Of a DNA stretch of 28,476 bases, positions 2,841 to 27,341 are shown in pieces. The notes under the pieces are model-generated. The model was not told the DNA's origin. It worked only from the letters and a program-made list of their open reading frames with translations, and searched no databases. Location: assembly GCA_947626095.1 (NCBI GenBank), contig CANQQV010000018.1:1-28476 (forward strand), written 5' to 3'. Positions within the stretch are counted from its first letter, which is position 1. Every line of letters begins with the position of its first letter. Position numbers and translations under genes: made by a program. This stretch comes from an uncultured Bacilli bacterium (lineage in GTDB: Bacteria > Bacillota_I > Bacilli_A > RF39 > UBA660).

Positions 2841-2906
2841 TACAAAAACTCCTCTCTTTATTCTTACCTATTATAAATATACACTTTTTTTCATTTTTTT
2901 TCAATA

Positions 2907-2932
2907 TAAAAGCACCTTTAAACAGGTGCTTT
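2907..2932 (-). terminator. Intrinsic terminator after the 1010-aa gene
   Basis: AAAGCACCT-TTAAAC-AGGTGCTTT perfect 9-bp inverted repeat (2909-2932), 3 nt past the stop. Confidence 0.75.
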
Positions 2933-2935
2933 AAC

Positions 2936-5900: not shown

Positions 5901-5968
5901 ATTGAATCTTTCACCTCTGAGCCTACACCACTAACTACGGCTTCCTTTCTACGAAATCTATCAAACAT
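2936..5968 (-). CDS. Large hypothetical helical/coiled-coil protein with Pro-rich linker
   Basis: 1010-aa ORF with AAAGGGGA RBS; K/E-rich helical composition; PPAPPKKEEPPVNPVPG linker; no TM or signal peptide; ends SGKGRAR. Confidence 0.8.
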   Translation of the reverse strand: MFDRFRRKEAVVSGVGSEVKDSMKKGKRKLNFREKIDISKLDDDDKIKALIEGLMESNALESTTVAFERYALFDEKYRVFVERFKKLIVEVQKEKKAEALAVQIEKIIEELKALVGPARELVSIDKFKNVITKEASDIDIFTNDAIKGLNDFVRKQTDLTLRIKEYNDNYGPYTYDHVAICTKEEIRSRYELIAIEVDRLQKELVTAPDNKKNFIKAKLDSLNGLIELLPNLMENPLSFEPIKAEVDKQISSNRKAKEDDKVKLSNDVRELLISSQSKLMSKLKLLDFTINDDLREVNEKLRNIVASYPSLSEDEKYTIAQDIVKKEGGYFPNVSNDLVKALVGDRGVIAAIHYAIDPLYNIDFSNDEFKRSLFNVEAVVADMARNPVLIAHGATVNFDDKYNFSIKIPELGINYSKPVFDVNKYQDYMANEINDVLADYARDIKIIYSDNMTVGLELISKMEKFDLSQIDELIKAKGQEYKVKLEELGIDSDKAVDFINRKTLEVSSELERKYNKKDLAVVKFVQNDLAPKFTYIRNGITELKKLEFGTPEADAKYNEVRQLISNLLTYVNGDECKEYGVKMIYDELSEKIAFDYNCPLLQPFAMEVLTNEALKAKNARKSEEPPAPPKKEEPPVNPVPGNNGSEQPNPTTSEPTPVGSEEERIRDEQSYIELMNIINLKIQNLNDINSRSYPFADQVRLTEDFIRNSIQLEKLAKDLDFEILSLKTELSTKRAEYTNKYKKLLFSNQTIKNMKFEKIKFPVNYQLFVEKHDSLIVEAEAKISELLEKRDSSVKTEEITAQIGLLLEFIDCQNSVVGRFLINECEKADINIVEMLEKRREFKKNLRAQLQKSKSQEPVPEETESKSSDKEKTTEQSEGEVVVTNKQMSFNPKKLSKVNRKHSEILTDVDTLTLSVIKNGIKIKYSRDLAKKLQEVKARLALVNKKNYRVRKTAQLGIADDDTLVESELAFKTKEEIDPDDYKIEIRNDDGVLYEYDLANLPDSGKGRAR

Positions 5969-5985
5969 ATAACTTACATCCCCCT

Positions 5986-6237
5986 TTATGCTACAAGACT
6001 TTTAATAAAGTTAGATATTTTCTCTTTATCAATTGGATTATTTATATCAATAAGTTGATCATATCCTTCTTGATCCTTAGTAACATATGAAGCTAATATA
6101 TCAAATGTCCCATTTTTATTATCAAGTGAATAAACAGCATATTCCTTACCATCAATTTCTACAACAGATAGAATCTCAGCATCCATTATTTCTCCTGTCT
6201 CTACTTCGACTTGAAACTTTTGACCTTTTCCTTCCAT
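5986..6237 (-). CDS. DUF1292 family protein
   Basis: 83-aa acidic ORF; GGAGGGGA RBS; E.EILSVVEIDGKEYAVYS..L.DI...E.EKI pattern typical of DUF1292. Confidence 0.75.
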   Translation of the reverse strand: MEGKGQKFQVEVETGEIMDAEILSVVEIDGKEYAVYSLDNKNGTFDILASYVTKDQEGYDQLIDINNPIDKEKISNFIKSLVA

Positions 6238-6272
6238 GAGTAATCCCCTCCGTTTTCTTTATATCTCTTTTA

Positions 6273-6282
6273 ATTATAACAT
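6273..6282 (-). promoter_or_regulatory. Extended -10 promoter for DUF1292 and the 1010-aa gene
   Basis: ATGTTATAAT (TG-n-TATAAT) on the minus strand. Confidence 0.6.
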
Positions 6283-6294
6283 AAATATTTATAA

Positions 6295-6876
6295 TTATCT
6301 ATCATCTTTATTATAAACTATTCTAATTTTTGCTAAATGACTATATTTTAAAACTTGTTCCTTTAAATCATCCTGTTCAAACAAGTATAATTCGCCAAAT
6401 TCCCATACACTAAACGAAGCAATAAATGATATAATTTCTCTCATAAAACTAAAGAAATTATAGTTCATATTCAACGCCAACAAAGCAAAGCCAATAATTC
6501 CCATTATTAAAAAGAAAAAACTTTTTCTTCTTAATGCTTTAAGTTCCATTTCTTTATTTATCTTCATTAAACTAAAATGATTTTTTAATAACTTTCTAAG
6601 TAATATTCTTTCTTCAGAACTAATCTTCTTGCTATGAATCTCTAATACAAGTGGATAATCTAGAGGTATATAAGAAGCATAATTTTCTATAAAAGACAAA
6701 AAATCATCTTTTAAAATAGGATTAACACTTAAAGAATAAGTAGATATAATGCTCTTAAAATCATCTAATTTCAAATCAATATAAGCTTCATCATCATTTA
6801 ATTTTAATTCATTAACTTTCTTAAAATTTTCAAACTTCGCTTTTTGATATCTCTTTAACTTATCTTTTGAAGACAT
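6295..6876 (-). CDS. Hypothetical membrane protein (two C-terminal TM helices)
   Basis: 193-aa ORF; AGGTGGA RBS; TMs FFFLIMGIIGFALLAL and IISFIASFSVW. Confidence 0.75.
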   Translation of the reverse strand: MSSKDKLKRYQKAKFENFKKVNELKLNDDEAYIDLKLDDFKSIISTYSLSVNPILKDDFLSFIENYASYIPLDYPLVLEIHSKKISSEERILLRKLLKNHFSLMKINKEMELKALRRKSFFFLIMGIIGFALLALNMNYNFFSFMREIISFIASFSVWEFGELYLFEQDDLKEQVLKYSHLAKIRIVYNKDDR

Positions 6877-6890
6877 AATCCACCTACTAT

Positions 6891-7163
6891 CTATTTATTA
6901 GTATTTTGATAATAATTAGTTTCTGCTAACTGCTCTGCTAAATAACCAAGATCGCTATCTTCATCATAATCTTCTTGTTCAATCATATAAAGTAATTCTG
7001 ACATACTACCACATTTACTTGGATCAATATTATATCTTTCTAAAGTACTAACTTGATTATCTGTAAGTAATAAACCATTATTTCTTACCTTTAAAAAATT
7101 ACGATCAGGATCCTTAAGTCCTACTAATTCTTCAATTTCATCATTAGTTAATTCATGAGCCAT
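6891..7163 (-). CDS. Hypothetical acidic protein
   Basis: 90-aa ORF starting 3 nt after the upstream stop, with AAAGGAG RBS inside the MazG-like gene end. Confidence 0.75.
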   Translation of the reverse strand: MAHELTNDEIEELVGLKDPDRNFLKVRNNGLLLTDNQVSTLERYNIDPSKCGSMSELLYMIEQEDYDEDSDLGYLAEQLAETNYYQNTNK

Positions 7164-7166
7164 AAT

Positions 7167-7472
7167 CTATTCTCCTTTTTTTACTAAAACACCTTTATCA
7201 TTTTTCACATAAACTCTTTTATTATTCTTATCTATTTTCTTTAAAACAGCTTCTTCTAAATTAATATGTAATATTTCAGCTAATCCCATCGTAAAAATCA
7301 TAATATCAGCTAATTCTTCATTCAAATCTTCTTTTCTTTTACGATAAGCATCAAAAGCTTCAGCTACTTCCCCATACAAATAACAAAACTCTTGATTAAC
7401 ATCGGTTACATTAAACCCTTTATTAAGTTTATTTTGATATACTTCTTTTTGTTTAGCTACTAAATCTATCAT
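7167..7472 (-). CDS. MazG-like nucleotide pyrophosphohydrolase (all-alpha NTP-PPase)
   Basis: 101 aa; GEVAE (ExxE) and EELAD (ExxD) metal-binding motifs; KIDKNNKR C-terminal motif; GAGGAG RBS. Confidence 0.85.
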   Translation of the reverse strand: MIDLVAKQKEVYQNKLNKGFNVTDVNQEFCYLYGEVAEAFDAYRKRKEDLNEELADIMIFTMGLAEILHINLEEAVLKKIDKNNKRVYVKNDKGVLVKKGE

Positions 7473-7542
7473 GTCAAAAACTCCTCTTTTACCTTTTATA
7501 CCATTCTAACTAAGTATACCATACAATATTAAATATTTATGT

Positions 7543-7567
7543 AAAAAAGCAAGTATTTTACTTGCTT
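7543..7567 (-). terminator. Intrinsic terminator after the YnbB-family gene
   Basis: AAGCAAGTA-TTT-TACTTGCTT (7547-7567) plus A-tract. Confidence 0.75.
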
Positions 7568-7572
7568 CTTGA

Positions 7573-8817
7573 CTATTTTTTAAGTCCTTCTATCGCTCTA
7601 GCTACTCCCAAGCGTCCATATTCATAAGTAAGACCACCTTGTTGATAAGCAATATAAGGTTCTCTAATCGGTCCATCACAACTAAGTTCAATAGATGATC
7701 CTTGCGTAAATGCCCCTGCCGCCATAATAACTTGATCCTCATAACCAGGCATATCCCAAGGCATCGGTACAGCCTTAGAATCAATTGGTGAACCCATTTG
7801 AATACCTTGAACATACTTAATTAATTTATCTTTATCATTAAATATTATATTTTGTACGATATCTGCTCTATCTTCATCATACTTAGGTTCTACATTATAT
7901 CCTAAATCTTCTAAACATTTACTTGCTAAAATAGCTGTTTTTAAACTACTAGCTACTACTGAAGGAGCCATAAATAACCCTTGTAATAAACTCTTATTAA
8001 TACCCAAAGTAGGTCCTACTTCTCTACCTTCTCCTGGACAAGTAAGTCTTTCACCCGCTAAATCAACTAAGTCTTTTTTACCAGCTATATAAGCCCCATT
8101 AGGAGCAATTCCTCCCCCTAAGTTTTTAATTAAAGATCCAACCATTACATCAGCTCCAACTGTTAAAGGCGTTTTACTTTCCACAAACTCACAATAACAA
8201 TTATCAACCATTATAATAACATCTTTATCTATTTCACGAATAACCTTAATAACTTTTTCTAACTTATCGATAGTTAAACTTTTTCTCGTTGAATAGCCTT
8301 TACTTCTTTGAATCTCTATTAATTTAACTTTATTCTTCTTTAAATAAGCTTTAATCTTTTCATAATCAAAATCATCATCTACTAAATCAATCTGTTCATA
8401 TTTAACCCCAAAAGAAGCTAAACTACTATTATTTGGTACAATACCTATTACTTCATGTAACGTATCATAAGGTAAACCAGATATTGATAACATAACATCA
8501 TTAGGACGAAGATAAGCAAATAAAGCAACCGTTAAAGCATGAGTCCCCGAAATAAATTGACTTCTAACTATGGCATCTTCTCCATCTAAGACATAAGCAA
8601 AAATCTTTTCAATATTATCTCTTCCTAAGTCATTATAACCATAACCAGTCGTACTATTAAAATAACTTTCTGATACTTCATACTTTTGAAAACCAGCTAA
8701 TACTTTCATTGAATTATCTTTAGCTTGTCTATCTATTTTACCAAATATATCTTTTAACTTACTTTCTTCCTCTTCAATAAAATCTAAAGTTTCTTTACTT
8801 ATATTTAATTCATCCAT
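7573..8817 (-). CDS. YnbB / methionine gamma-lyase-like PLP-dependent enzyme
   Basis: TGYGYNDLGRD, SGTHAL, PYDTL, IQRSKGY, VDNCY, GSLIKNLGG (PLP Lys) and IMAAGAFTQGSSIELSCDGP motifs. Start placed at ATG 8817 (GGAGG 9 nt upstream; TAATG overlap with the SDR stop); the ORF track gives 8823. Confidence 0.88.
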   Translation of the reverse strand: MDELNISKETLDFIEEEESKLKDIFGKIDRQAKDNSMKVLAGFQKYEVSESYFNSTTGYGYNDLGRDNIEKIFAYVLDGEDAIVRSQFISGTHALTVALFAYLRPNDVMLSISGLPYDTLHEVIGIVPNNSSLASFGVKYEQIDLVDDDFDYEKIKAYLKKNKVKLIEIQRSKGYSTRKSLTIDKLEKVIKVIREIDKDVIIMVDNCYCEFVESKTPLTVGADVMVGSLIKNLGGGIAPNGAYIAGKKDLVDLAGERLTCPGEGREVGPTLGINKSLLQGLFMAPSVVASSLKTAILASKCLEDLGYNVEPKYDEDRADIVQNIIFNDKDKLIKYVQGIQMGSPIDSKAVPMPWDMPGYEDQVIMAAGAFTQGSSIELSCDGPIREPYIAYQQGGLTYEYGRLGVARAIEGLKK

Positions 8818-9563
8818 TAACATCTACCTCCATCAATCTTTATAATCGCATCATTTACATACGTAGCTTCTACCCCAATATAATAAATAAATTCAGCAAC
8901 TTCATTAGGTTCTGCAAATCTCCCAAGTAATATATGTTTACATTCATCATTTATATAATCTTCCCCTAATTCTTTATTCATCTCTGTATTCACCCAACCT
9001 GGTGCTATACTATTAACTCTTATATTAGGCGCATATAAATTAGCAAAATTATGCGTTAAAGAAATAACGCCGGCTTTAGATGCATCATAATCCATACTAT
9101 AGGCATAATAAGAATCTATGCCATTAGTTGAAGATATATTAACTATTGACCCATATCCTTGTTTATTCATTACTTCTCCAACATACTTACACATTAAAAA
9201 ACAACCAATTAAATTAACATCAATAATCTTTCTAAAATTATCAACTGTCTTATCTTCTAACGTCGTATCAATAGCAATTCCCGCATTATTAACTAAGACA
9301 TCAATATGACCTAATTCCCTTTTTGTTACTTCAACTAACTTCTTAACTTCTTCTTCCTTACTTACATCAGCTTTAACAACTAAAGCCTTAACCCCATACT
9401 TAGCTTCTATCCTACTCTTTAAATCTAAAGCTTCATTCTCACTATTTAAATAATTAATTACCACATTATAATTATTCTTTGCAAATACTTCTATCGTAGC
9501 TGCGCCAATTCCTCTACTACTACCCGTTACTAAAGCAACCTTTTTACCATAACTATCACTCAT
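8817..9563 (-). CDS. Short-chain dehydrogenase/reductase (FabG-like)
   Basis: TGSSRGIG, NNAG, catalytic S..YDASK, IRVNSIAPG and DGG motifs. Confidence 0.9.
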   Translation of the reverse strand: MSDSYGKKVALVTGSSRGIGAATIEVFAKNNYNVVINYLNSENEALDLKSRIEAKYGVKALVVKADVSKEEEVKKLVEVTKRELGHIDVLVNNAGIAIDTTLEDKTVDNFRKIIDVNLIGCFLMCKYVGEVMNKQGYGSIVNISSTNGIDSYYAYSMDYDASKAGVISLTHNFANLYAPNIRVNSIAPGWVNTEMNKELGEDYINDECKHILLGRFAEPNEVAEFIYYIGVEATYVNDAIIKIDGGRC

Positions 9564-9588
9564 ATTTATCCCCGTTTCTTTATCGAAT

Positions 9589-9625
9589 TTATTATAACAT
9601 AATAGCCTATTTAATGTTATAATAA
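9589..9625. promoter_or_regulatory. Back-to-back divergent extended -10 promoters forming a 12-bp inverted repeat
   Basis: TTATTATAACAT (9589-9600) / ATGTTATAATAA (9614-9625); each arm contains TGTTATAAT pointing outward. Confidence 0.7.
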
Positions 9626-9640
9626 TTGCAGGTGATTGGA

Positions 9641-9856
9641 TTGGAAAGACTCACTGGTCCTCTACAAAGACAAGAATTTTATAACATGGGTAGAGAATTC
9701 GCTTACGAAGGCTTAGAAAAAGAATACTTTAAATCATCTACTCCTGAAGAATTAGAAGCATTTGAAGCCGGCTATAACGCTGCTTTAGTTACTATAAGTG
9801 AACAACAAGAAAAAAAGGAACAACAAGAGCAAACTGGACCTAAGATGGGAAAATAA
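9641..9856 (+). CDS. Small acidic hypothetical protein (possible Rmf/CrpP-like helical hairpin)
   Basis: Own extended -10 (9615-9623), AGGTGA RBS (9630-9635), in-frame TTG at 9641 and own terminator; the ORF track starts at 9626. Confidence 0.75.
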   Translation: MERLTGPLQRQEFYNMGREFAYEGLEKEYFKSSTPEELEAFEAGYNAALVTISEQQEKKEQQEQTGPKMGK

Positions 9857-9883
9857 ACTTAAAACAAGTAAGTTTATTTTTTT
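9850..9883 (+). terminator. Terminator of the plus-strand gene
   Basis: AAAATAAACTTA/TAAGTTTATTTT inverted repeat (9850-9880) running into a T-tract; AT-rich stem. Confidence 0.6.
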
Positions 9884-9888
9884 GTCAC

Positions 9889-9918
9889 AAAAAAGATATT
9901 AGCTTTTAACTAATATCT
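9889..9918 (-). terminator. Terminator of the helicase gene
   Basis: AGATATTAG-N7-CTAATATCT (9894-9918) plus A-tract. Confidence 0.65.
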
Positions 9919-9966
9919 AACTTCTGAATTATTTTATAAATAATATTTACACCTTACCGAGTAATA

Positions 9967-11604
9967 TCAATCATTTATTGTTTTAACATCTTTTTTATCC
10001 TTTATTATTTCTTTGACAAATACTGATTGATTTTTTGTAGGACTTATAATATATGTAATTGTTTTTGTTCTCGTTAAAGCTACATAAAATAATCTTCTTT
10101 CTTCTTCATACTTATAATAATCTTTCTGTTTATTAACATATTTTAATAATTTCTCTTGTTTAATTTTCGTCGGCATTCCTATTAACGAATCTTCAATATT
10201 AATAAGTATCACTACTTCACTTTCTAATCCCTTCGATTTATGCATCGTTAAATATCTAAATTTAATATTTTTATACGTATACATATCATTATCATTCTTA
10301 AATTCTTTATCTATATATTTATTAATATCTTTATTATTTCTTCCTAATACCATTATCTCTTCTACTTTATTACTATTAATTAATTCTAATAACTCTTTTA
10401 ATGCTTTAACTCTATTATCACTAAATAATATCTTAACAGGATATTCTAAATGTTTATGTGATACTAAGTTCTTTTTCTGTTGTGCTTTATTCTTCATAAT
10501 AAACTTTCCTGCTACGTTAATTAGTTCTTGGGGATTACGATAAGTATTAACTATTTGAAATATTTTGGCATAAGGAAGTAACTTCGTAAAATTTAAAAAT
10601 AAATGTAACGTACACCCTGTAAAACGATATATCGATTGAAAGTCATCTCCTACTGCCAAAAATTTAGCATTAGTTAAACGAATAATCTCTTTTATTAAAT
10701 TAAACTTTGTCATTGAAGTATCTTGATACTCATCAACTATTACATACTTCCACTTCGTTTTTAATCCATTTTCTTTTAAACACTCTAAACTTTTATTAAT
10801 CATATCATTAAAGTCTATCGCTTGTTCTTTACTTAATTCATCTTCATACAATAAATAAATATTTATAATAAATAACAATATATTTTTATTTACTCTATAT
10901 TCCTTATAATTAATTGTAAATCTTATCTTTTTAAGTATTTCTTTAAAATAACTAAGATCATAGTTATTAGCTTTAAATAACGATATAAAAGTCTGGATTA
11001 ATCTCTTTAAGTTATTTAACTCTTTATCTTTATAATCCTTACCTAGTATTATCTTCAAACTATTCATATATTTTTTATTATTGGGCATAATACTATCAAA
11101 GAACTTATTAATAGTTTCTTCTAAAAAATTATCAGGAGCGATTATAAATGACTTATTGTTTTGTTTTAATATTTCTAATGCTAGTTTATGAAATGTGTAT
11201 ATATCTATCTTAAAATTATAATTCTTCGCAATATTATTTTTTAAATTAATTGTTGCATCATTTGTAAATGATATACATAAAATATCTTTCGGATCTATAT
11301 GACAACAATTAACTAAATAAACTATCTTCCCAATTATTGTTAAGCTTTTCCCACTCCCTGCTCCCGCTACAACTAATGTTGCCTTTTCATTACTTAAAAC
11401 AACTTTACTTTGGTAATCATCTAGTGGATACCCATTAATATTATCCAGTAATGTTACTTCTTTTCTTTTTCTTATAAAATATTCTTGATTGTGCATATCT
11501 ACTACTTTATCAATATCTTTTATTTTATATTTCTTTCTTAATATCTCCTTTTCTTCTAAATTAATATATTCTTTTTGTTTTATTTCCTCATTAATATAAA
11601 TCAC
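9967..11604 (-). CDS. UvrD/Rep-family SF1 DNA helicase (helicase IV-like)
   Basis: AGAGSGKS (Walker A), SFTN, TFH, DEYQD, GDDFQSIYRF, TYRNP, TMHKSKGLE and EERRLFYVALTR motifs. Confidence 0.9.
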   Translation of the reverse strand: MIYINEEIKQKEYINLEEKEILRKKYKIKDIDKVVDMHNQEYFIRKRKEVTLLDNINGYPLDDYQSKVVLSNEKATLVVAGAGSGKSLTIIGKIVYLVNCCHIDPKDILCISFTNDATINLKNNIAKNYNFKIDIYTFHKLALEILKQNNKSFIIAPDNFLEETINKFFDSIMPNNKKYMNSLKIILGKDYKDKELNNLKRLIQTFISLFKANNYDLSYFKEILKKIRFTINYKEYRVNKNILLFIINIYLLYEDELSKEQAIDFNDMINKSLECLKENGLKTKWKYVIVDEYQDTSMTKFNLIKEIIRLTNAKFLAVGDDFQSIYRFTGCTLHLFLNFTKLLPYAKIFQIVNTYRNPQELINVAGKFIMKNKAQQKKNLVSHKHLEYPVKILFSDNRVKALKELLELINSNKVEEIMVLGRNNKDINKYIDKEFKNDNDMYTYKNIKFRYLTMHKSKGLESEVVILINIEDSLIGMPTKIKQEKLLKYVNKQKDYYKYEEERRLFYVALTRTKTITYIISPTKNQSVFVKEIIKDKKDVKTIND

Positions 11605-11654
11605 CCTCTATTATATTTATTATTGATAGATTCGTGATTTCCTTTTTTTATCAC

Positions 11655-11682
11655 AAAAAAAACTTCAGTATAAACTGAAGTT
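11655..11682 (-). terminator. Intrinsic terminator
   Basis: AACTTCAGT-ATAA-ACTGAAGTT (11661-11682) plus A-tract. Confidence 0.8.
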
Positions 11683-12109
11683 AATTCTCTTGATCTTTAA
11701 AGATTGAGTCACTAATTATCTTATAATACTCTTTCTTTTCCTTTGACATCATAGCTCTTTCTCTTAAACTGCCATCTATTCCTAAATCACTCATTAAAGA
11801 TATTTTATCTTGACGACCTAATAAACTTAAGAACTTATCTACTTCTCCTTTTTCATAAGCAGCCAAAAATTTTTCTTTTCTTTCTTCATTTAAAATCTTA
11901 TTCGCATTATTAATTCTAATTGCTATTTCATCATAATCATTTTCTAAAGCTAATAAGTAAAGGCCTATTCTAACTGATTCATTTAATAATGCTAATTCCT
12001 TACATATTTGTTCAACATCATAATTCATATAAACAATTTCTTTTAAAGTTTCGTTCATAATCGTAATTATTTCTTTTTTATATAGTTTACTAGTAATCGT
12101 CTTCGCCAT
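11681..12109 (-). CDS. Hypothetical helical protein
   Basis: Monocistronic with TG-A-TATAAT (12134-12142), GAGGGA RBS before ATG 12109 (track start 12121) and its own terminator. Confidence 0.75.
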   Translation of the reverse strand: MAKTITSKLYKKEIITIMNETLKEIVYMNYDVEQICKELALLNESVRIGLYLLALENDYDEIAIRINNANKILNEERKEKFLAAYEKGEVDKFLSLLGRQDKISLMSDLGIDGSLRERAMMSKEKKEYYKIISDSIFKDQEN

Positions 12110-12156
12110 AGTATCCCTCATATTCTACTTTTTATTATATCATATTTTATTTATCT

Positions 12157-12182
12157 AAAAAAGACAGTTTAAGCTGTCTTTT
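12157..12182 (-). terminator. Terminator overlapping the ABC gene stop
   Basis: AAAAGACAG-TTTAAG-CTGTCTTTT (12159-12182). Confidence 0.75.
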
Positions 12183-14274
12183 CAAATTGACTATTATATA
12201 GTTTCTCATAGAAACCACCTTGAGCCATTAATTCATCATGTGTACCTTGTTCAATGATATTACCTTCATTCATAACTAAGATTAAATCAGCATTCTTAAT
12301 TGTTGATAAACGATGCGCAATAATAAATGAAGTTCTGCCCTCTGTAAGTTTATCCATTGCTTTTTGCACCAATTCTTCTGTACGTGTATCTACATTACTC
12401 GTAGCTTCATCTAAGATTAAGAATGGCGCATCTTCTATCATACCACGAGCAATCGTCAGTAATTGTTTTTGTCCTTGACTAACTGAAGTATCATCAGTAA
12501 TAACTGAATCTAAACCACCTGATAAAGTTTTAATAAAATGATCAATACCTACTGTTCTACAAGCTTTCCAGATATCTTCATCTGTCACATCTTTTTTATT
12601 AAATTTAATATTGTCACGAATTGTTCCATCAAATAACCATGTATCTTGTAATACCATAACAAATAAATCATGAATATTTTCTCTCGTTAAATTCTTCGTT
12701 GAAACGCCATCAATTAAGATATCCCCATCATTAATATCATAGAATTTCATTAAAAGATTAACCATTGTTGTTTTACCGGCTCCAGTAGGTCCTACTATCG
12801 CTATTTTTTGACCTGGTTTAGCTAATGCACTAAAGTTTTTAATTATTGTACGTCCCGCATCATAACCAAATCTAACGTTTTTAAATTCAATTTCCCCTTT
12901 TACTTTTGATTTATCTAAGTGTTGAATCTTTTCATTTTCTAAAGGCATTTCTTTTTCATCTAAGAATTCAAATACTCTTTCAGAAGCTGCTGCTGTAGAT
13001 TGTAATGTTGTCATTGCTTGAGCAATTTGCGATAATGGATTAGTAAATAATCTAACATAAATCATAAATGCGACAATAACCCCAAATGAGATAACATCAT
13101 TCATTGTAAGTAATGCTCCTACTACACAAACTGCTACATAACTTAAATTACCGACAAAGCCCATTATAGGTTGCATAACTCCTGATAAGAATTGACTCTT
13201 ACGATTACAATCATATAATTTATTATTTAATTTTTTAAATTCGGTAACAGCTTCTTTATCCCCATTATAAGCTTTAACGACATTATGACCAGAATATATT
13301 TCTTCAATATAACCATTTAAATTACCTAATTCAACTTGTCTTTGATTAAAGTATTTTTGTGACTTACCTAAGATTAAGAACATTAAAGCAAAACCAATAA
13401 GACTTGCTAAAATAGCCGTTATAGCCATTGTCCAATTAGTCACAAACATCATAATTATTGAACCAACAAACAAAGTAATACTAGCTACTAACATCGCTAA
13501 ACTTTGATTCATATTCATTCCAATCATATCAACATCATTAGTAACACGTGATAAGACATCACCAGCTTCATGTTGATCAAAATACTTTAATGGTAATTTA
13601 TTAATCTTGGTACTAATACTACTTCTTAATTTTTTCGCAAAATTATTTGATATTGTTGCCATTGAATAATGTTGTATGTAACTAAATATTGCACTAATAA
13701 TATAGAAAGAAGCTAAAACAATCGCAATACGATATACTTCATCCATATTCATTTTTGGTTTAACTAAGTCATAAATTGAACTTGGTAATTCATCCATTTT
13801 AGCTAATAATTCTTCACTAGTTGATTCTGGATCAACACTACTCATTAGTTCTAAGAACTTAATTTGATCATCTTTATTAATTGTTACATCATCTACTTTA
13901 ATATCAGCTAATGAGTTTAAAATACCACTACTTATTAAAGCCTTTATATCTGGTGTTGCTTGGGTATTTTGCATTTCACTACTATCAGTAACACTATACT
14001 GAGCTAATACACTTTGAACATTACTACTAATCGCTGTACTTACTTCTTCTAACTTTTCTGTATTAGGTACTAGACCTTCCCCAATTGTATCAGCAAAATC
14101 TGATAATTTATTAGGAGCTATTATCGCTAGAATAGCACTAGCCATTGCTAAGATTAAAGCAACAATTAATAAATAACGCCAATTATTTAAACTTAAGAAT
14201 AATCTTTTCATCGTGCCAAAGAAATCTTTTGATTTCTCATTAACACGATTCATTGGTCCACGTGGTCTAGGCAT
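12169..14274 (-). CDS. Heterodimeric ABC exporter subunit B (TMD-NBD, TM288-like)
   Basis: Six-TM domain; GPTGAGKT; degenerate signature VSQGQ; canonical LDEAT and AHR; 8-nt overlap with the partner gene. Confidence 0.92.
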   Translation of the reverse strand: MPRPRGPMNRVNEKSKDFFGTMKRLFLSLNNWRYLLIVALILAMASAILAIIAPNKLSDFADTIGEGLVPNTEKLEEVSTAISSNVQSVLAQYSVTDSSEMQNTQATPDIKALISSGILNSLADIKVDDVTINKDDQIKFLELMSSVDPESTSEELLAKMDELPSSIYDLVKPKMNMDEVYRIAIVLASFYIISAIFSYIQHYSMATISNNFAKKLRSSISTKINKLPLKYFDQHEAGDVLSRVTNDVDMIGMNMNQSLAMLVASITLFVGSIIMMFVTNWTMAITAILASLIGFALMFLILGKSQKYFNQRQVELGNLNGYIEEIYSGHNVVKAYNGDKEAVTEFKKLNNKLYDCNRKSQFLSGVMQPIMGFVGNLSYVAVCVVGALLTMNDVISFGVIVAFMIYVRLFTNPLSQIAQAMTTLQSTAAASERVFEFLDEKEMPLENEKIQHLDKSKVKGEIEFKNVRFGYDAGRTIIKNFSALAKPGQKIAIVGPTGAGKTTMVNLLMKFYDINDGDILIDGVSTKNLTRENIHDLFVMVLQDTWLFDGTIRDNIKFNKKDVTDEDIWKACRTVGIDHFIKTLSGGLDSVITDDTSVSQGQKQLLTIARGMIEDAPFLILDEATSNVDTRTEELVQKAMDKLTEGRTSFIIAHRLSTIKNADLILVMNEGNIIEQGTHDELMAQGGFYEKLYNSQFEKTA

Positions 14275-16027
14275 TGTCTAACTCCTCCTTTGAAAGTTGT
14301 GATAAAGCTATTTCTTTATACACTTCACAATTTTTTAGTAATTCTTTATGGGTACCAATGCCAACACATTCTCCTTTATCTAAAACGATTATCTTATCAG
14401 CATTCATAATCGTACCTATTCTCTGTGCCACAATTAAACTAGTAGCATCTTTTGTATATTTCTTTAATTCTTTTCTTAAAACTGCATCAGTCTTATAATC
14501 TAAAGCTGAGAATGAATCATCAAATATATATATTTCTGGATCACGGGCTATCGCTCTCGCAATCGCTAGTCTTTGTTTTTGACCACCAGAAACATTAGTA
14601 CCTCCACGCGCAATATGTGATTCATACTTATCTTCCATCTTCATCACAAATTCAGTCCCTTGTGCTACATCAATCGCTTTTTTAATTTTATCTAAAGATG
14701 GTTTTTTACGTCCATTATCACCATATCCAACATTATCAGCTACCGTTCCTGTAAACATAACTGCTCTTTGTGGTACATAACCAATCTTATTATGTAATAC
14801 CTCTTGTTTATATTCTTTAACATTTATACCATCTACTAATACTTCGCCATCAGTAGCATCATAAAATCTTGGTACTAAATTAATTAAGGTTGATTTACCA
14901 CTACCAGTTGATCCGATAAAAGCAATTGTTTCCCCTTTATTAGCTTTAAATGAAATATCTTTAAGTAAGTATTCATCAGCATCTGGATATTTAAATGATA
15001 CATTTCTAAATTCAACTGTACCTTTTTCTTTAGTCTCCTCATCAAACTTACCATCTGTAATATCAATTGGTTCTTCTAATACTTCATTAATACGATTAGC
15101 TGATACTTGAGCTCTAGGTACCATCATAAAGATCATCGCAAGCATTAAAAATGACATAATAACTTGCATTCCATAACTAGAAAATACTACCATATTACTA
15201 AATAAATTAACTTTTTCAACCATTCCCGCTTTAACAATCATTAAAGCTCCAATAAAGTATATACCTAAAGTTAAGAAATGCATAACAAAGTTCATCATTG
15301 GGTTCATAATGGCAAAACATCTTTGATTAAATAATTGGGTATTAGTTAAATCACTATTAACTTCTTCAAATCTCTTAGTTTGGAATTCTTCAGCGTTAAA
15401 CGCTCTTATAACCCTAATACCTGTTAAATTTTCTCTTGTTACCCCATTAACACGATCGATTAATTTTTGCACTTTAGCAAAACGTGGTAAAACAATTATC
15501 ATTAACGCAATAACTGTTGATAATAAAATAACTACTCCAGCTGCTGTTAACATACTCCACTCTATACTCTTATCAATTATCTTCATAACCGCCCATACGG
15601 CCATAATAGGTGCTTTAATCATCATTTGTAAACCCATACTAATTAACATTTCAATCTGCGTAACATCATTAGTTGTTCTTGTAATTAAACTACTAGTTGA
15701 AAACTTCTTAATCTCTGCCATACCAAAGTCTTCAACTTTATTAAATATTTTATTACGTAGTGTTCTTGAAAAACTAGCGGATAGTTTAGAAGCTAAATAA
15801 CCAACACCAATCGCTGATGCTAAACTACCTAAAGCACAAAGTAACATATAACTACCTTGTTCTAATATCTCACTCATTTTACTACCATCAGTTTGAATAA
15901 GTCTTGTTATCGCACTCATATAATCTGGTAGTTTTAATTCAATCCATACTTGGAAAACAATCATAACTAAACAAATAAAAATAATTAAAATATCTTTTTT
16001 ATTAAAATTCTTAAATAACTTTATCAT
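14267..16027 (-). CDS. Heterodimeric ABC exporter subunit A (TMD-NBD, TM287-like)
   Basis: GSTGSGKS; VSGGQKQR; degenerate Walker B FDDSF and switch AQR. Confidence 0.92.
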   Translation of the reverse strand: MIKLFKNFNKKDILIIFICLVMIVFQVWIELKLPDYMSAITRLIQTDGSKMSEILEQGSYMLLCALGSLASAIGVGYLASKLSASFSRTLRNKIFNKVEDFGMAEIKKFSTSSLITRTTNDVTQIEMLISMGLQMMIKAPIMAVWAVMKIIDKSIEWSMLTAAGVVILLSTVIALMIIVLPRFAKVQKLIDRVNGVTRENLTGIRVIRAFNAEEFQTKRFEEVNSDLTNTQLFNQRCFAIMNPMMNFVMHFLTLGIYFIGALMIVKAGMVEKVNLFSNMVVFSSYGMQVIMSFLMLAMIFMMVPRAQVSANRINEVLEEPIDITDGKFDEETKEKGTVEFRNVSFKYPDADEYLLKDISFKANKGETIAFIGSTGSGKSTLINLVPRFYDATDGEVLVDGINVKEYKQEVLHNKIGYVPQRAVMFTGTVADNVGYGDNGRKKPSLDKIKKAIDVAQGTEFVMKMEDKYESHIARGGTNVSGGQKQRLAIARAIARDPEIYIFDDSFSALDYKTDAVLRKELKKYTKDATSLIVAQRIGTIMNADKIIVLDKGECVGIGTHKELLKNCEVYKEIALSQLSKEELDNA

Positions 16028-23950: not shown

Positions 23951-24982
23951 TTAAATACATGGAGATTCACTTAAATATATCTTTTTATTAGTATAATCTA
24001 CTTTTATCTCTGATCCTAAAGGTATAATTCCTACTGGATCTGAATGACCAATATTAACATTATATAAAACCGGTAAGTCTTCTCGATTAAATTCCTTCAA
24101 AACTTTTTTATAAACTTCTTTATATTCTTCATAATATTGTTCATCTTGTGGTTTACCAACTATAATACCTTTAACTACATCAAAGATTCCTAAAGCTCCT
24201 AAATTTCTTAAATAAAAAGTTACATATTCCGGACTAGGTTTATCTTCACTCGTTTCTAACAATAATATTTTATCTCGCCATTCCTCTTTACTTGGCCATA
24301 CTTCCGTTCCCACAACCATGGGAAAAACATCTAAACAACCACCTAAAACTTCACCGGTTACAACACCTTGTCCTTGTAATACTTCATATCCATGTTCTTC
24401 TGGTCTTGTCTTTTTTTCGATCTTAATATTTTCTTCTTTCCATTCTACGAAGTCATTACACCATACTTCACTTGATTCAATTTCATAGTCCTTACAATCT
24501 TTAAATAAAATATTTTGCACAGCCTTCTTCGTATAATCAAACATTTTAACATATTCGCCAAATTCACACATTATTGAAGGCCCATAAAAAGATACTAATC
24601 CGGCTTTATACATCATTAAATGATTTACTGTTGTATCAGAATATCCCATAAATATTTTCGGATTATTTTTTATTACTTCATAATCAATATATGGTAATAA
24701 TCTAACGGTATCATCTCCGCCAATAGCACAGAAAATACCTTTTATTGATTCATCCTTAAAAGCATCCATTAAATCTTTAGCTCTAGCTTCTGGATGTTCA
24801 TATACAAACTCACTACCCTTTAAAGCATTCGGCATTGCGACAACTTCTAAACCAAATTCTTTTTCTAATCTTTCCTTAGCAATATAATATTTATGAATAA
24901 AATTATCATCACCAAGCATTCCACTAGACAAACTAACAATCGCAATTTTATCTCCTTTTTGTAATCTTTTAGGTTTAATCAT
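23951..24982 (-). CDS. S66 family peptidase, MccF-like (microcin C7 immunity/LD-carboxypeptidase family)
   Basis: IGGDD, NPKIFMGYSDTT (Ser115), FYGP, LLETSE (Glu243), GH (His313); loop W174-CNDFVE-W181. Confidence 0.92.
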   Translation of the reverse strand: MIKPKRLQKGDKIAIVSLSSGMLGDDNFIHKYYIAKERLEKEFGLEVVAMPNALKGSEFVYEHPEARAKDLMDAFKDESIKGIFCAIGGDDTVRLLPYIDYEVIKNNPKIFMGYSDTTVNHLMMYKAGLVSFYGPSIMCEFGEYVKMFDYTKKAVQNILFKDCKDYEIESSEVWCNDFVEWKEENIKIEKKTRPEEHGYEVLQGQGVVTGEVLGGCLDVFPMVVGTEVWPSKEEWRDKILLLETSEDKPSPEYVTFYLRNLGALGIFDVVKGIIVGKPQDEQYYEEYKEVYKKVLKEFNREDLPVLYNVNIGHSDPVGIIPLGSEIKVDYTNKKIYLSESPCI

Positions 24983-25012: not shown

Positions 25013-26440
25013 CTAAAAATCAATTATTCTACTATCAACTATATCAGAATAAACAGATACTAAATATTTCATATCTTCTGCATTAAAGGCCGTACATCCA
25101 TGTGTTGATGGACTTCCATTTCCTCCACCAACATGAAATGGATTACTTCCTCTTCCGCCACCACCATTATTCTTATAGATAACGTCAACTCCTAAACCTT
25201 CATTAACTCTTCTACCAACCGTATAACTATTAATATGAACTTTAGTCCCTGCATTATCACCATTATGTAGAAAATCACCTGTATTAACAGGAAATACTTT
25301 ATATAAACGCCAATTACCTTTAGAACCAGTAAACATATATTCCGTCTGTGAACCATGACTAGTCCAAAAAAGATATTTAGTTTTACTATCAAAGCCATTA
25401 GAATTTACAAAATCTTCAACATATTCTTTACCATACATACTTGAAATAGCATAAGAAACAGGTGTTACACTATTATTATTTATTTGAATATAATCATTAC
25501 CAACTTTAATTGTATCACCATATGGATAACCTTTAATACTACTTTTAGCTACTCCATTATATACACCCTGTGTTCCAGCATTTAAAGTTACACTATTACC
25601 GGTTATTAAACTATTACCCGTAACTTTAGATAATACTTTAACATTAGTATAAATAGTTTGAACTACTGTAACATTAACTGATGCTTTCTTAGAAGGATCA
25701 TCTTTAGAAGTAATAATAATATTCGTAATTCCCCCAAAATGTGGTTTAATAACTCCATCCTTAGTCACTGTAACAATTCCTTTATTACTACTTTCAAAAT
25801 TATAATCATTAGGATTTAAAGCATTACCTCTATTATCAACCAAAGATATACTAGCTTTATTAAATGAAGTGTAATTGGCCAAAGCTAGACGTTGTTTAGT
25901 AACCTTAAACTCATTATTAACAATTAATTCTGGTTCTGCAACTTGTCCGAAAGTAGTATCACCACCTTCTACTTCTTCACTATTATTCTCCTCACGATTA
26001 CCCTGAATAACCTCATTAACACTATCTTCTTTTTCTTTTCTCTTTTCTAAAGCTTCTTGCATTTTCTGACGTTCTTTTTCTTTTTCAGCTTCCAACTTCT
26101 GTTTTTGTAATTCCGTCAATTCTTTTATTCGCTCTAATGATATATTATTTGCACATACTTTCAAAGGATTTTCACTATTTGTTATTATTGAAGTAAAAAC
26201 ATAATTAATAATTACTGGAATCAGAAAAACAATAATCGCCGCTACCGTTCTCTTACCAATCATTGATATTGAACCACTTACATTCTCTTTTTTCGGATTC
26301 ATAACTATTTTAAATAAATCTACTATAACTAAAATAATTAAAATAATAGGTACCAAGGTAAAAACAATTTGCAACGCATACTTCATAATTAACAAAACAC
26401 TTAAAATATGCGGTTCCTCACATATTGTTATTCCATCCAT
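25013..26440 (-). CDS. Pilin-like two-TM / coiled-coil / Ig-like (Big_2) / L,D-transpeptidase-like fusion protein
   Basis: Cys-flanked two-TM N-terminus; FESSNKGIVTVTKDGVI..GITNIIITS (Big_2-like); SKTKYLFWT..QTEYMFTGSKGNWRLYKVFPVNTG and FH...STHGC (YkuD-like). Confidence 0.72.
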   Translation of the reverse strand: MDGITICEEPHILSVLLIMKYALQIVFTLVPIILIILVIVDLFKIVMNPKKENVSGSISMIGKRTVAAIIVFLIPVIINYVFTSIITNSENPLKVCANNISLERIKELTELQKQKLEAEKEKERQKMQEALEKRKEKEDSVNEVIQGNREENNSEEVEGGDTTFGQVAEPELIVNNEFKVTKQRLALANYTSFNKASISLVDNRGNALNPNDYNFESSNKGIVTVTKDGVIKPHFGGITNIIITSKDDPSKKASVNVTVVQTIYTNVKVLSKVTGNSLITGNSVTLNAGTQGVYNGVAKSSIKGYPYGDTIKVGNDYIQINNNSVTPVSYAISSMYGKEYVEDFVNSNGFDSKTKYLFWTSHGSQTEYMFTGSKGNWRLYKVFPVNTGDFLHNGDNAGTKVHINSYTVGRRVNEGLGVDVIYKNNGGGGRGSNPFHVGGGNGSPSTHGCTAFNAEDMKYLVSVYSDIVDSRIIDF

Positions 26441-26456
26441 AATCTCACCTACTATC

Positions 26457-27296
26457 TTAAACTTTTTTTATACTATAAAAATAATATTTATTATCTGACG
26501 CTTTTCTTAAAGTAACAATATAATCTATATAAAAATTATAACAATCTTTAGCTATATTATCACCATTTAAACAAGTACTTGAAACATTCTTCTTTATTAG
26601 TTGTTTTTTATTTTTATTACTATAAGCATTATAAGTTATCTTAACATAATCATTCGCTCCATATTGTTCTTCAACTAATTCTTCAATAAACGCCACTTTT
26701 AAATTAATTTCAATTTCTTTATTACTTTTTACATCATAATCATCTATAACTGTTTTATAATACCCAACATCATCATTACTAAATAAACCACAACTATCTG
26801 GCAATTTAGAATCTATAACATAATTACTATTACTCTTAGTTATTTTACGGTTACAACCATAAGACATTTCTATAATATCCATTTTAAAATCTGGGCCAAA
26901 TAAATTTTTTGCTAATTCATCTACAACATTTTGGTTTATCGTAACTTTAAAAGAATCAGTATTTTTATCATAATTTTTTTCACTATAAAAATCTTCGTGT
27001 GTCGCAATATAATTATCTACTACTAAAGTGGTTAAAAACTCTGACGACAAGGAATCTACATTATAATCTTTATCATAAATATATCCCATATATTTCCCAC
27101 TACTACTTAGATTTTGCATATAAAAAACATTCCATGTATGTTCATTTACCACTACAATATCATACAATTCATCTTTATCTAAAGAATTACTAGGAGCAAT
27201 TAATAACTTAATTAAATAAAAAATAATTATTATTAAAACAATAGCAATAATAATAAATATTATCTTAGTTGATTTATTTAATTTTTCTGTTTTCAT
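26457..27296 (-). CDS. Membrane-anchored exported hypothetical protein
   Basis: N-terminal TM (IIFIIIAIVLIIIIFYLI), four Cys in the exported domain; start ambiguous (27305/27302/27296; AAAGGG spacing favours 27296). Confidence 0.78.
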   Translation of the reverse strand: MKTEKLNKSTKIIFIIIAIVLIIIIFYLIKLLIAPSNSLDKDELYDIVVVNEHTWNVFYMQNLSSSGKYMGYIYDKDYNVDSLSSEFLTTLVVDNYIATHEDFYSEKNYDKNTDSFKVTINQNVVDELAKNLFGPDFKMDIIEMSYGCNRKITKSNSNYVIDSKLPDSCGLFSNDDVGYYKTVIDDYDVKSNKEIEINLKVAFIEELVEEQYGANDYVKITYNAYSNKNKKQLIKKNVSSTCLNGDNIAKDCYNFYIDYIVTLRKASDNKYYFYSIKKV

Positions 27297-27341
27297 TCTC
27301 ATCAACCCTTTTTAATAATATTAAAGAAATATATTTAACTA

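Follow-up and report, generated by a model that had tools for sequence, protein, structure and literature searches.

The DNA analysed here, called the window throughout, is a stretch of 28,476 nucleotides (contig CANQQV010000018.1 of assembly GCA_947626095.1) from an uncultured Bacilli bacterium of the order RF39, with a G+C content of about 27% and every large open reading frame (ORF) on the minus strand. The gene under study, referred to as the target, occupies 25013..26440 (-) and encodes, as seen from the ORF and its translation, 475 residues in which a membrane hairpin apparently related to type IV secretion system (T4SS) pilins precedes a YkuD-fold domain. The N-terminal part consists of a two-helix membrane hairpin bracketed by Cys7 and Cys96 (residues 1-97, 26150..26440 (-)), recognized by profile, AlphaFold2 (AF2) model and charge bias, and of a long Glu/Lys-rich helix that AF2 places as a coiled-coil stalk (residues 100-151, 25988..26143 (-)). 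An acidic linker (residues 152-183, 25892..25987 (-)) of low confidence, with a predicted local distance difference test (pLDDT) below 50 over residues 142-182, leads to a Big_2-like immunoglobulin (Ig) domain (residues 184-258, 25667..25891 (-)) assigned from AF2 strands and profile matches, to an SH3b-like beta barrel detected by structure search (residues 259-330, 25451..25666 (-)) and finally to the YkuD-fold catalytic domain (residues 335-475, 25016..25438 (-)) supported by AF2, structure search and profile. The catalytic motif H436-x9-THGC449-TA (residues 436-451, 25088..25135 (-)) was located in a 31-sequence alignment. Directly upstream, the ORF at 26457..27305 (-) encodes a single-pass membrane protein of 282 aa with a four-Cys ectodomain, the partner; its stop codon lies 16 nt before the target ATG, and this gap holds, 3' of the partner stop and immediately 5' of the ATG, the Shine-Dalgarno sequence AGGTGA of the target (26445-26450 (-)).

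The first-pass annotation, made from the letters of the window, had described the N-terminus as a Cys-bracketed hydrophobic hairpin in place of a signal peptide, and this description holds. Only nine codons separate the target ATG from the upstream in-frame stop, so that a hidden signal peptide is excluded. The hairpin helices span residues 10-47 and 51-85 in the AF2 model (pLDDT about 70-79), and a single helix at 102-151 corresponds to the coiled-coil stalk that had also been claimed. A word-based search gave eight relatives of the target, down to 30% identity, and orthologues lie at 77% and 49% identity in the loci L008 and L009; in the resulting orthologue alignment (A1) C7, P31, F72, P75, C96, H436, G439, G448, C449 and T450 are invariant in all nine sequences and the linker is variable in length. 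Compared directly with Pfam, NCBIfam and PHROGs, the target gave nothing significant, the best weak matches being HL_N-beta (E 0.0016), phrog_3793 (E 5.8e-4) and the pilin-like Mbov_0395 (E 0.87).

The relationship of the hairpin to pilins was approached through a profile of columns 1-100 of alignment A1, run over the six-frame ORFs of the genome of the target (G000; 8476 ORFs of at least 40 aa). Ten ORFs match, with E-values from 1e-13 to 1e-38, and the next match has E 0.45. Two of the matched paralogues, L006:14850-15233 (E 1.3e-15) and L001:12461-13348 (E 3.9e-13), each score 28.1 bits on the T4SS_pilin family PF18895, above its cut-off of 26.6, and three further module ORFs match PF18895 weakly. 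Since the target profile matches paralogues that pass the family cut-off, the target hairpin is held to be homologous to accepted PF18895 members and, on sequence grounds, appears to be a divergent relative of this family; the pilin similarity proposed in the first-pass annotation is thus borne out. For the N-terminal module alone, T4SS_pilin was absent in the NCBIfam and PHROGs scans, where weak matches to pilin-like families of Mycoplasma integrative conjugative elements were seen, and a PDB sequence search with the module profile returned membrane-protein noise (rhodopsin, E 0.03) and no solved pilin. The leader peptide and small stand-alone form of such pilins are not found in the target, which is 475 aa long and has no upstream start codon. 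A phage origin, or an anchor of holin or signal-arrest-release type, was rejected: no relative occurs among 67 pattern matches in viral contigs, and PHROGs gave only four single weak matches among the 10 modules.

A whole-family profile, searched against an exhaustive library, gave 11,495 matches at E<=1e-3 and 2,570 at E<=1e-10, which include Big_2 repeat proteins. For many library proteins (130-560 aa) the match is confined to profile positions 1 to about 160, which cover the module and the stalk; 104 of them were aligned together with the target (alignment A2). Both bracket cysteines are kept in 103 of these 105 module proteins, and both are missing together in two paralogues on contig C30 of the target genome. 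In most of the 105 proteins the N-terminus is separated from the module by 5-8 residues. Over the whole set the loop between the helices has a mean net charge of +1.75 and the N-tail of -0.95, charges of loop and tails that agree with the positive-inside rule. The hairpin would therefore be oriented with its N-terminus outside, its loop inside and its C-terminal side outside, and Cys7 and Cys96 would form an external disulfide; the paired cysteines, the charge bias and the occurrence of the cargo behind ordinary signal peptides support, without proving, this topology, the disulfide and the export of the cargo.

The cargo that follows the stalk begins with beta strands at residues 184-259 in the AF2 model. 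The family profile matches Ig domains of Nup210 (E 7e-12), intimin (E 1.9e-6) and bglH (E 5.8e-7), and a precomputed PF02368 match on the relative P0008 agrees with the Big_2-like domain recognized earlier. Residues 259-330, in which the first-pass annotation had seen no separate domain, resemble SH3b domains of the NlpC/P60 protein 3h41 (Z 6.2), of LytB (Z 6.0) and of the phage endolysin 4krt (Z 5.0), values that are modest (5-6.2). The full-length AF2 model from nine sequences left residues 392-449 at pLDDT <50 and was replaced, for residues 255-475, by one built from a 31-row alignment of the C-terminal half, which reached pLDDT 91.9 and a predicted template modelling score of 0.88.

A structure search with this model over 48,161 chains returned YkuD-family proteins in all of the top 20 rows (Z 6.3-13.9), with 4xxt first (Z 13.9, root-mean-square deviation 2.2 over 120 residues), followed by the Mycobacterium smegmatis L,D-transpeptidase (Ldt; Z 13.1), LdtMt2 (12.2), Csd6 (10.5), Pgp2 (10.0), Bd1075 (9.9), DpaA (7.5) and Tlde1a (6.3). 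Foldseek agrees (E 1.3e-6), its eight matches at E<=1e-3 all being to chains of YkuD-family entries, and profile searches of PDB matched 4xxt, an ErfK/YkuD-type domain (E 2.4e-6, then 2.2e-7 with 31 sequences), 4lpq (E 1.2e-4) and L,D-transpeptidase 2 (E 0.031); the SHGC of the family is aligned with the SHGC of the matched chains, including 4xxt. The proposed YkuD-like C-terminus with a His/Cys pair is thus upheld. Among the 31 sequences, which are about 27-87% identical, Y330, N346, S352, W359, G388, D389, H436, P444, G448 and C449 are invariant, as is a TGD motif, and H447 is found in 26. Because the same cargo family (Ig, SH3b and YkuD domains) lies behind ordinary signal peptides or anchors in seven relatives (P0026, P0032, P0041, P0059, P0066, P0088 and P0098), the cargo of the target is taken to be exported.

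The motif reads as first described, with a short spacer and no Asn. In canonical YkuD enzymes about 16-21 residues separate the His from the Cys, and an Arg or Asn lies two residues after the Cys; in the target the spacer has 12 residues, rising to 22 in distant members of the family, and the residue at the latter position is Ala451. The short spacer is, in the alignment, a deletion proper to the subfamily. Position 451 is Arg in 19 of the 31 sequences, most relatives having SHGCTR, Ala in four including the target, and Asn in two. These features raise the question of whether the domain is a weak or dead enzyme kept as a wall-binding module in a protein that serves as an adhesin or anchor, to which the Ala in place of Arg, the shortened His-Cys loop, the neighbouring Ig and SH3b-like binding domains and the unmet YkuD threshold of Pfam would be suited. 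The invariance of His436, Cys449, Gly448, Pro444 and TGD across sequences so divergent is hard to explain without catalysis, and the partner, predicted to sit over exactly this site, would make most sense with an active enzyme; a protein of this adhesin or anchor type is considered very unlikely. The reaction type is not assignable, since the fold resembles transpeptidases and L,D-carboxypeptidases about equally. Taken as a whole, the target is very probably an exported, hairpin-tethered YkuD-fold enzyme built on a reused pilin-family module.

The partner, a further element that had been missed, has one membrane helix and an ectodomain with four conserved cysteines, matches no Pfam family and falls in the Atlas in Bacillota clusters without names only. 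It directly adjoins the target gene in all four genomes that carry the cargo (the window, L008, L009 and L015), lying upstream of the enzyme gene in the first three. Within the host's order, of which 151 genomes of 0.6-1.6 Mb each were sampled, the queries used here found the cargo in two genomes and the partner family in six, with strong matches in the target genome and in G007, a match of 1.3e-8 in G015 and matches of about 1e-4 in three others. The sole other ORF of the target genome that matches the partner family, weakly (E 1.8e-4), is G000:C16:28708-29685 (-). A homology of the partner to membrane proteins of T4SS loci in relatives (L012-L014) was rejected, as no homology was detected with hidden Markov models.

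In G007 fusion, partner, fusion and partner follow each other with gaps of 10, 7 and 38 nt. The two fusion genes are identical at 350 of their first 360 nt, which corresponds to a module of 120 aa with 97% identity, and then fall to chance level, with 23/60 and 16/60; the cargo is identical at 103 of 302 positions (34%) and the partners at 141 of 249. Such tandem cassettes, in which the module stays nearly identical but cargo and partner have diverged, point to diversifying exchange. Directly upstream of them lies a 246-aa membrane-anchored protein (L015:6068-6808) that by eye resembles DNA/RNA non-specific endonucleases.

A complex between residues 255-475 of the target and 45-282 of the partner was predicted with a score of 0.70 (runs of 0.72, 0.01 and 0.70), and the best of three controls scored 0.00; the mark applied is reached by 116 of 157 solved complexes and by 2 of 215 mismatched pairs, a calibration that is only rough because own alignments were used here. 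Agreement between the runs covers at least 1% of contacts, and the partner has pLDDT >=77. The predicted interface involves residues 436-439 and 445-449 of the target, with His436, His447 and Cys449, and residues 97-109 and 168-178 of the partner, which are its most conserved stretches and contain the invariant D97, I100, F106, L168, D170, C172 and G173. The partner is therefore predicted to bind over the active site, and on this model its role as an inhibitor of the enzyme is favoured with moderate confidence.

The hairpin module is not confined to the target: as the first-pass annotation had asked, the same N-terminus was sought elsewhere in the genome, and seven of the 10 module ORFs are fused to cargo of six kinds. 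Besides the Ig, SH3b-like and YkuD-like cargo of the target (contig C18), these comprise a Peptidase_C39_2 (C3_106813), two CHAP domains, one over the cut-off with 36.6 bits (C3_110460) and one weak (C9), a GDSL domain (C13), a VanY domain (C30_4200) and an unknown domain (C30_5874). The remaining three, one on C4 and two on C7, are stand-alone modules of about 130-150 aa. Each of the two C30 fusions has a lipoprotein gene 12 nt behind it, and these lipoproteins are mutually paralogous (E about 1e-53). The same C30 locus (L005, 8128 nt) contains, as judged by eye, transposase-like ORFs at 203-1350 and a small SleB/CwlJ-like ORF at 7597-8025. On C4 the stand-alone module has a classical signal peptide and is followed by a 684-aa protein (L003:8099-10708, G000:C4:86098-88707) whose N-terminus resembles by eye the C39 peptidase domain of bacteriocin ATP-binding cassette exporters.

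Similar cargo was found well beyond this genome. In the Pfam scan of all 105 sequences of alignment A2, T4SS_pilin was matched 19 times (E<1e-3), CHAP eight times, ELLD and Peptidase_C39_2 seven times each, NlpC/P60 and GDSL six times each, M23 and VanY four times each, esterase-type families three times, Big_2 twice and glucosaminidase once. In the sampled order 146 of 151 genomes carry the module, each with 1-16 matches, and at least 54 module matches lie in open frames of at least 250 aa among the 140 listed outside the target genome. Outside the order one weak match (E 6.3e-6) was found in 118 genomes, a sample drawn mostly from one class. Two module matches 840 nt apart in a single 423-aa frame of G072 (G072:C1:22021-23124) could belong to a double-hairpin protein.

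These data are compatible with an ordinary function in remodelling of the producer's own wall, in which the hairpin would be the lineage's membrane anchor for a toolkit of autolysins and cross-linking enzymes independent of any T4SS, and the partner a housekeeping regulator. The cargo set (CHAP, NlpC/P60, VanY, GDSL, M23 and YkuD) is a typical autolysin repertoire, the presence of the module in nearly every genome of the order fits a core function, and the genome makes peptidoglycan, with five penicillin-binding protein and seven Mur ligase matches, as the first-pass annotation had proposed to check. The genes around the target have housekeeping functions, namely aspartyl-tRNA synthetase, an S66 carboxypeptidase and a methyltransferase, and several fused paralogues, like the target, sit among housekeeping genes. 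In particular, the aspartyl-tRNA synthetase gene is close by both in the window and in L008, and the S66 LD-carboxypeptidase gene (23951-24982 (-), two domains with E 7.6e-35 and 2.3e-27) lies 30 nt downstream of the target and is missing at that position in L008, where a 582-aa ORF is found instead. Against a self-wall function, cargo and partner were found in only two of 151 genomes and hence are no core enzyme system, a canonical YkuD gene is also present in this genome, and the tandem cassettes of G007 suggest diversifying exchange; the T4SS evidence given below bears on it as well. A self-wall role with a regulator is a serious rival, to which a lower but substantial probability is given.

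The target genome carries the VirB4-like genes that the first-pass annotation had proposed to look for, within a core T4SS locus of Gram-positive type on contig C7 (L006, G000:C7:14000-33999, about 2724-15224). Two stand-alone pilin genes lie directly upstream of a gene for a 945-aa polytopic VirB6-like protein, and the locus continues with a TcpE-like gene, a VirB4-like ATPase, an 826-aa SpoIID and NlpC/P60 protein, a lipoprotein and a VirD4 coupling protein. VirB4 is found in 143 of the 151 genomes, mostly in one copy and at 64-82% identity, and this T4SS therefore looks chromosomal, vertically inherited and not mobile. A conjugative element at this locus was considered and is unsupported, as no relaxase domain occurs among the 15 ORFs of L006 that were scanned. 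In the whole genome, which is 91% complete, Mob_Pre and Rep_trans gave no match, and the relaxase family PF03432 gave one weak match (19.7 bits, below the cut-off) on C1. It lies 2 kb downstream of a second, divergent VirB4 (32% identity, 786-aa frame; G000:C1:143786-147823); this region probably represents an integrated conjugative element, separate from the core T4SS. At L006:17766-18038 the archaeal type IV Pilin_N family is weakly matched (E 0.0025).

The ties between module and secretion system are several. Over the 151 genomes both module and VirB4 are present in 142, both are missing in four (G069, G092, G106 and G143), the module alone is found in four and VirB4 alone in one, a table that counts related genomes and whose weight is limited by kinship and assembly gaps. 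Going by 150 listed of 583 module matches, at least 36 of the 150 other genomes have a module no more than 10 kb away from VirB4. Genes joining the module to C39_2 and to GDSL lie inside the T4SS locus of G137, and in G108 an Amidase_3 protein with a C-terminal module adjoins VirB6. In addition, the lipoproteins encoded next to the C30 fusions are paralogues of the lipoprotein of the T4SS locus (E 1e-10 to 1e-28). The fused genes inside T4SS loci of relatives and the lack of VirB4 in four of the five genomes without the module count against a wall function independent of the T4SS.

Five T4SS loci of relatives (L010-L014) show further variants of the same elements. Genes encoding a signal peptide, then a large ectodomain and then a C-terminal pilin module (for instance L010:11226-16437) occur up to four in a row beside VirB6; Amidase_3 is found in one of them, and the ectodomains of the others match no family. 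In two loci the VirB6-like protein itself weakly matches the module profile at its N-terminus (L010:8841-11210, E 5e-6; L014:8989-11238, E 5e-5). Small prepilin-like genes whose products start with MREAxGG or MKEATGE (L011:1601-3840, L010:18041-19043 and L013:3060-3719) form arrays upstream of the T4SS pilins.

The fusions inside T4SS loci also suit a function as VirB1-like helper, in which the pilin module would recruit the enzyme to the T4SS or pilus for a local edit of the producer's wall that allows passage. According to the portion of PMC12102498 consulted, monoderm T4SS loci require wall hydrolases that are anchored in the membrane by their N-terminus; capping of the active site by the partner until assembly would suit such a role. 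However, VirB1-like proteins such as PrgK and TraG are encoded within the T4SS operon and carry lytic transglycosylase or CHAP domains, whereas the target lies on another contig and has YkuD-like cargo. Moreover, the T4SS locus already has the 826-aa SpoIID and NlpC/P60 hydrolase, seven fused enzymes per genome exceed the need of one machine, and the YkuD cargo is rare in an order in which the T4SS is nearly universal. A helper of this kind is accordingly regarded as rather improbable.

Known systems resemble the target in part. In the consulted sections of PMC12102498 and PMC12857230, PF18895 pilins of the Patescibacteria arrays are described; in common with the module they have a hydrophobic hairpin of two helices whose short loop is positively charged. 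Paralogues in the target genome pass the family cut-off and adjoin VirB6, VirB3-like and VirB4 genes, with several divergent copies per genome as in those arrays. In contrast, the target has 475 aa, no leader peptide, enzyme domains, a position away from the T4SS locus and a sub-threshold score, and its host belongs to a Bacillota-type small-genome gut lineage and not to the Patescibacteria. In the same sections of these papers, a T4SS review of December 2025 and a genomic survey of 2025, VirB2 is stated to be missing from Gram-positive T4SSs, with Patescibacteria as the sole exception. Within the YkuD superfamily (PF03734) the solved chain nearest to the target is 4XXT of Clostridium acetobutylicum; other members are LdtMt2, Bacillus subtilis YkuD and, among the L,D-carboxypeptidases, Csd6, Pgp2 and Bd1075. 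Common to them and the target are the fold (Z 9.9-13.9), an (S/T)HGC motif that holds the catalytic Cys, an invariant His upstream of it, and SH3b or Ig accessory domains in an exported protein; the target departs from them in its 12-residue His-Cys spacer, Ala451 and a Pfam score of 11 bits.

Regarding wall enzymes of secretion systems, PrgK of pCF10 and TraG of pIP501, as presented in the available part of PMC12102498, also have an N-terminal anchor followed by wall-active domains and are functionally associated with a Gram-positive-type T4SS; they have, however, a single anchor helix, glycosidase and CHAP domains and one copy inside the transfer operon, whereas the target has a pilin-family hairpin, YkuD-like cargo, seven scattered fused genes in its genome and a cognate partner gene. 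In the Salmonella type VI secretion pair Tlde1/Tldi1, as far as the accessible text of PMC9638812 and PMC13478106 goes, a YkuD-fold enzyme that acts on peptidoglycan likewise has an adjacent neutraliser and a patchy distribution, but the secretion system is another, the host is diderm and Tlde1a (Z 6.3) ranks below housekeeping Ldts.

The cassettes of G007, in which nearly identical modules carry strongly diverged cargo and each fusion has its own partner, recall a further class of proteins. Polymorphic toxins, for instance the LXG toxins of type VII secretion systems, combine an N-terminal trafficking region that stays constant with a C-terminal enzyme that varies, and have an immunity gene alongside. 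A constant N-terminal region with a variable C-terminal enzyme, the joining of one module to many cargo types and a patchy accessory distribution are all found here; the difference is that a pilin-family membrane hairpin takes the place of a soluble secretion domain as the constant part. The literature searched yielded no description of fusions between pilins and enzymes; supplements such as Table S3 of PMC12102498 could list them.

A mechanism that would accommodate these observations can be outlined. The enzyme would act outside the cytoplasm on the stem peptides of peptidoglycan through Cys449 and His436, as an L,D-transpeptidase or an L,D-carboxy- or endopeptidase. Having no signal peptide, it would be inserted and held in the membrane by the N-terminal VirB2-like hairpin, with the N-tail and C-terminal side outward, Cys7 and Cys96 joined and the positive loop inward, and the stalk, Ig and SH3b-like domains would keep it at a distance from the membrane and position it against the wall. 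The membrane-anchored partner would bind over the active site, leaving the enzyme inert towards its producer. The gene would be one member of a modular set in which the same pilin-like module is carried on interchangeable wall enzymes, a set tied to a chromosomal, vertically inherited T4SS with stand-alone pilins of the same family, and the enzyme with its partner would form an effector-immunity-like cassette for walls other than the producer's, or alternatively would serve the producer's wall only where the T4SS or pilus passes.

In this scheme it is well supported that the lineage has a core T4SS with pilins of the hairpin family and that the enzyme has a dedicated neighbour; that the set works with the T4SS, and that the wall attacked is not the producer's own, we infer. 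The effector-immunity-like role is preferred on three grounds: the cassette occurs patchily, its tandem copies keep the head constant while the cargo varies, and the partner is predicted to cap the active site. The partner gene and the patchy occurrence of the cassette, neither of which had been noticed in the first-pass annotation, are the strongest new hints of action on foreign walls. The overall interpretation given there is partly supported: the four checks made on it (pilin relation, reuse of the module, wall-synthesis and VirB4-like genes, YkuD model) turned out favourably, and the protein may also be displayed on a filament, act on neighbouring cells and use its hairpin as an export tag, as proposed there.

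Several observations weigh against this preferred interpretation. The target gives no match to PF18895 at E<=1 (gathering score 26.6 bits), and its YkuD match to PF03734 reaches 11 bits (E 0.54, profile positions 95-135), below the cut-off of 23.4; its activity may be altered, as Ala replaces the Arg that follows the catalytic Cys in most relatives. Beyond the rough calibration, one complex run of three scored only 0.01 and the partner alignment used for the prediction has six rows only. The gene order is not constant, the partner coming first in the window, L008 and L009 and alternating with the fusions in G007, and an exported neighbour is missing for three of the seven fused paralogues (C13 and both C3 genes). 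The target lies among the housekeeping genes described above on a contig without T4SS genes, the VirB4 matches being on C7 and C1. The joint absence of module and VirB4 may reflect one missing contig, since the stand-alone pilins adjoin VirB4, and pilus formation by PF18895 proteins is unproven in the consulted part of PMC12857230. With these points taken into account, the full interpretation, including the T4SS link and the action on non-self walls, is held tentatively, at a little short of an even chance.

Transcriptional signals in the window add little: promoter-like sites number 26 against 23.5 expected, which is uninformative, and the one terminator-like site lies within the target gene, none being found between partner and target. 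The sequencing runs that contain this DNA are gut metagenomes from two studies, and no RNA run is among those listed.

What is new here is the host lineage, the leaderless N-terminal form of the module, the YkuD cargo, the partner predicted to cover the active site and a T4SS that is conserved across the order. A second monoderm lineage, which is uncultured but abundant in the guts of animals, thereby comes to be associated with a pilin family (146 of 151 genomes) and a conserved chromosomal T4SS, and the pilin hairpin emerges as the N-terminal module of a swappable set of wall enzymes, at least one of which has a partner predicted to block its active site. A bolder possibility, which is doubtful at present, is that the core, apparently non-conjugative T4SS and its pilin hairpin, doubling as trafficking and display domain, define a new class of polymorphic effectors, in which interchangeable peptidoglycan enzymes, each with a membrane or lipoprotein immunity partner, sit on or next to a pilus and cut or rewire the walls of other bacteria. 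If true, this would have a counterpart in the essential T4SS and pilin arrays of epibiotic Patescibacteria and would mean that the uncultured gut host lives in a physical contact with other cells that breaches walls. If the enzymes act on the producer's wall, they would represent a new way to anchor and regulate autolysins; if they act on foreign walls, they would give Gram-positive-type bacteria a new way to attack, or attach to, other bacteria, and would offer a hint as to the resistance of these organisms to cultivation. In either case, the pilin-tagged set of wall enzymes hints at an as yet undescribed way of handling or attacking bacterial walls.

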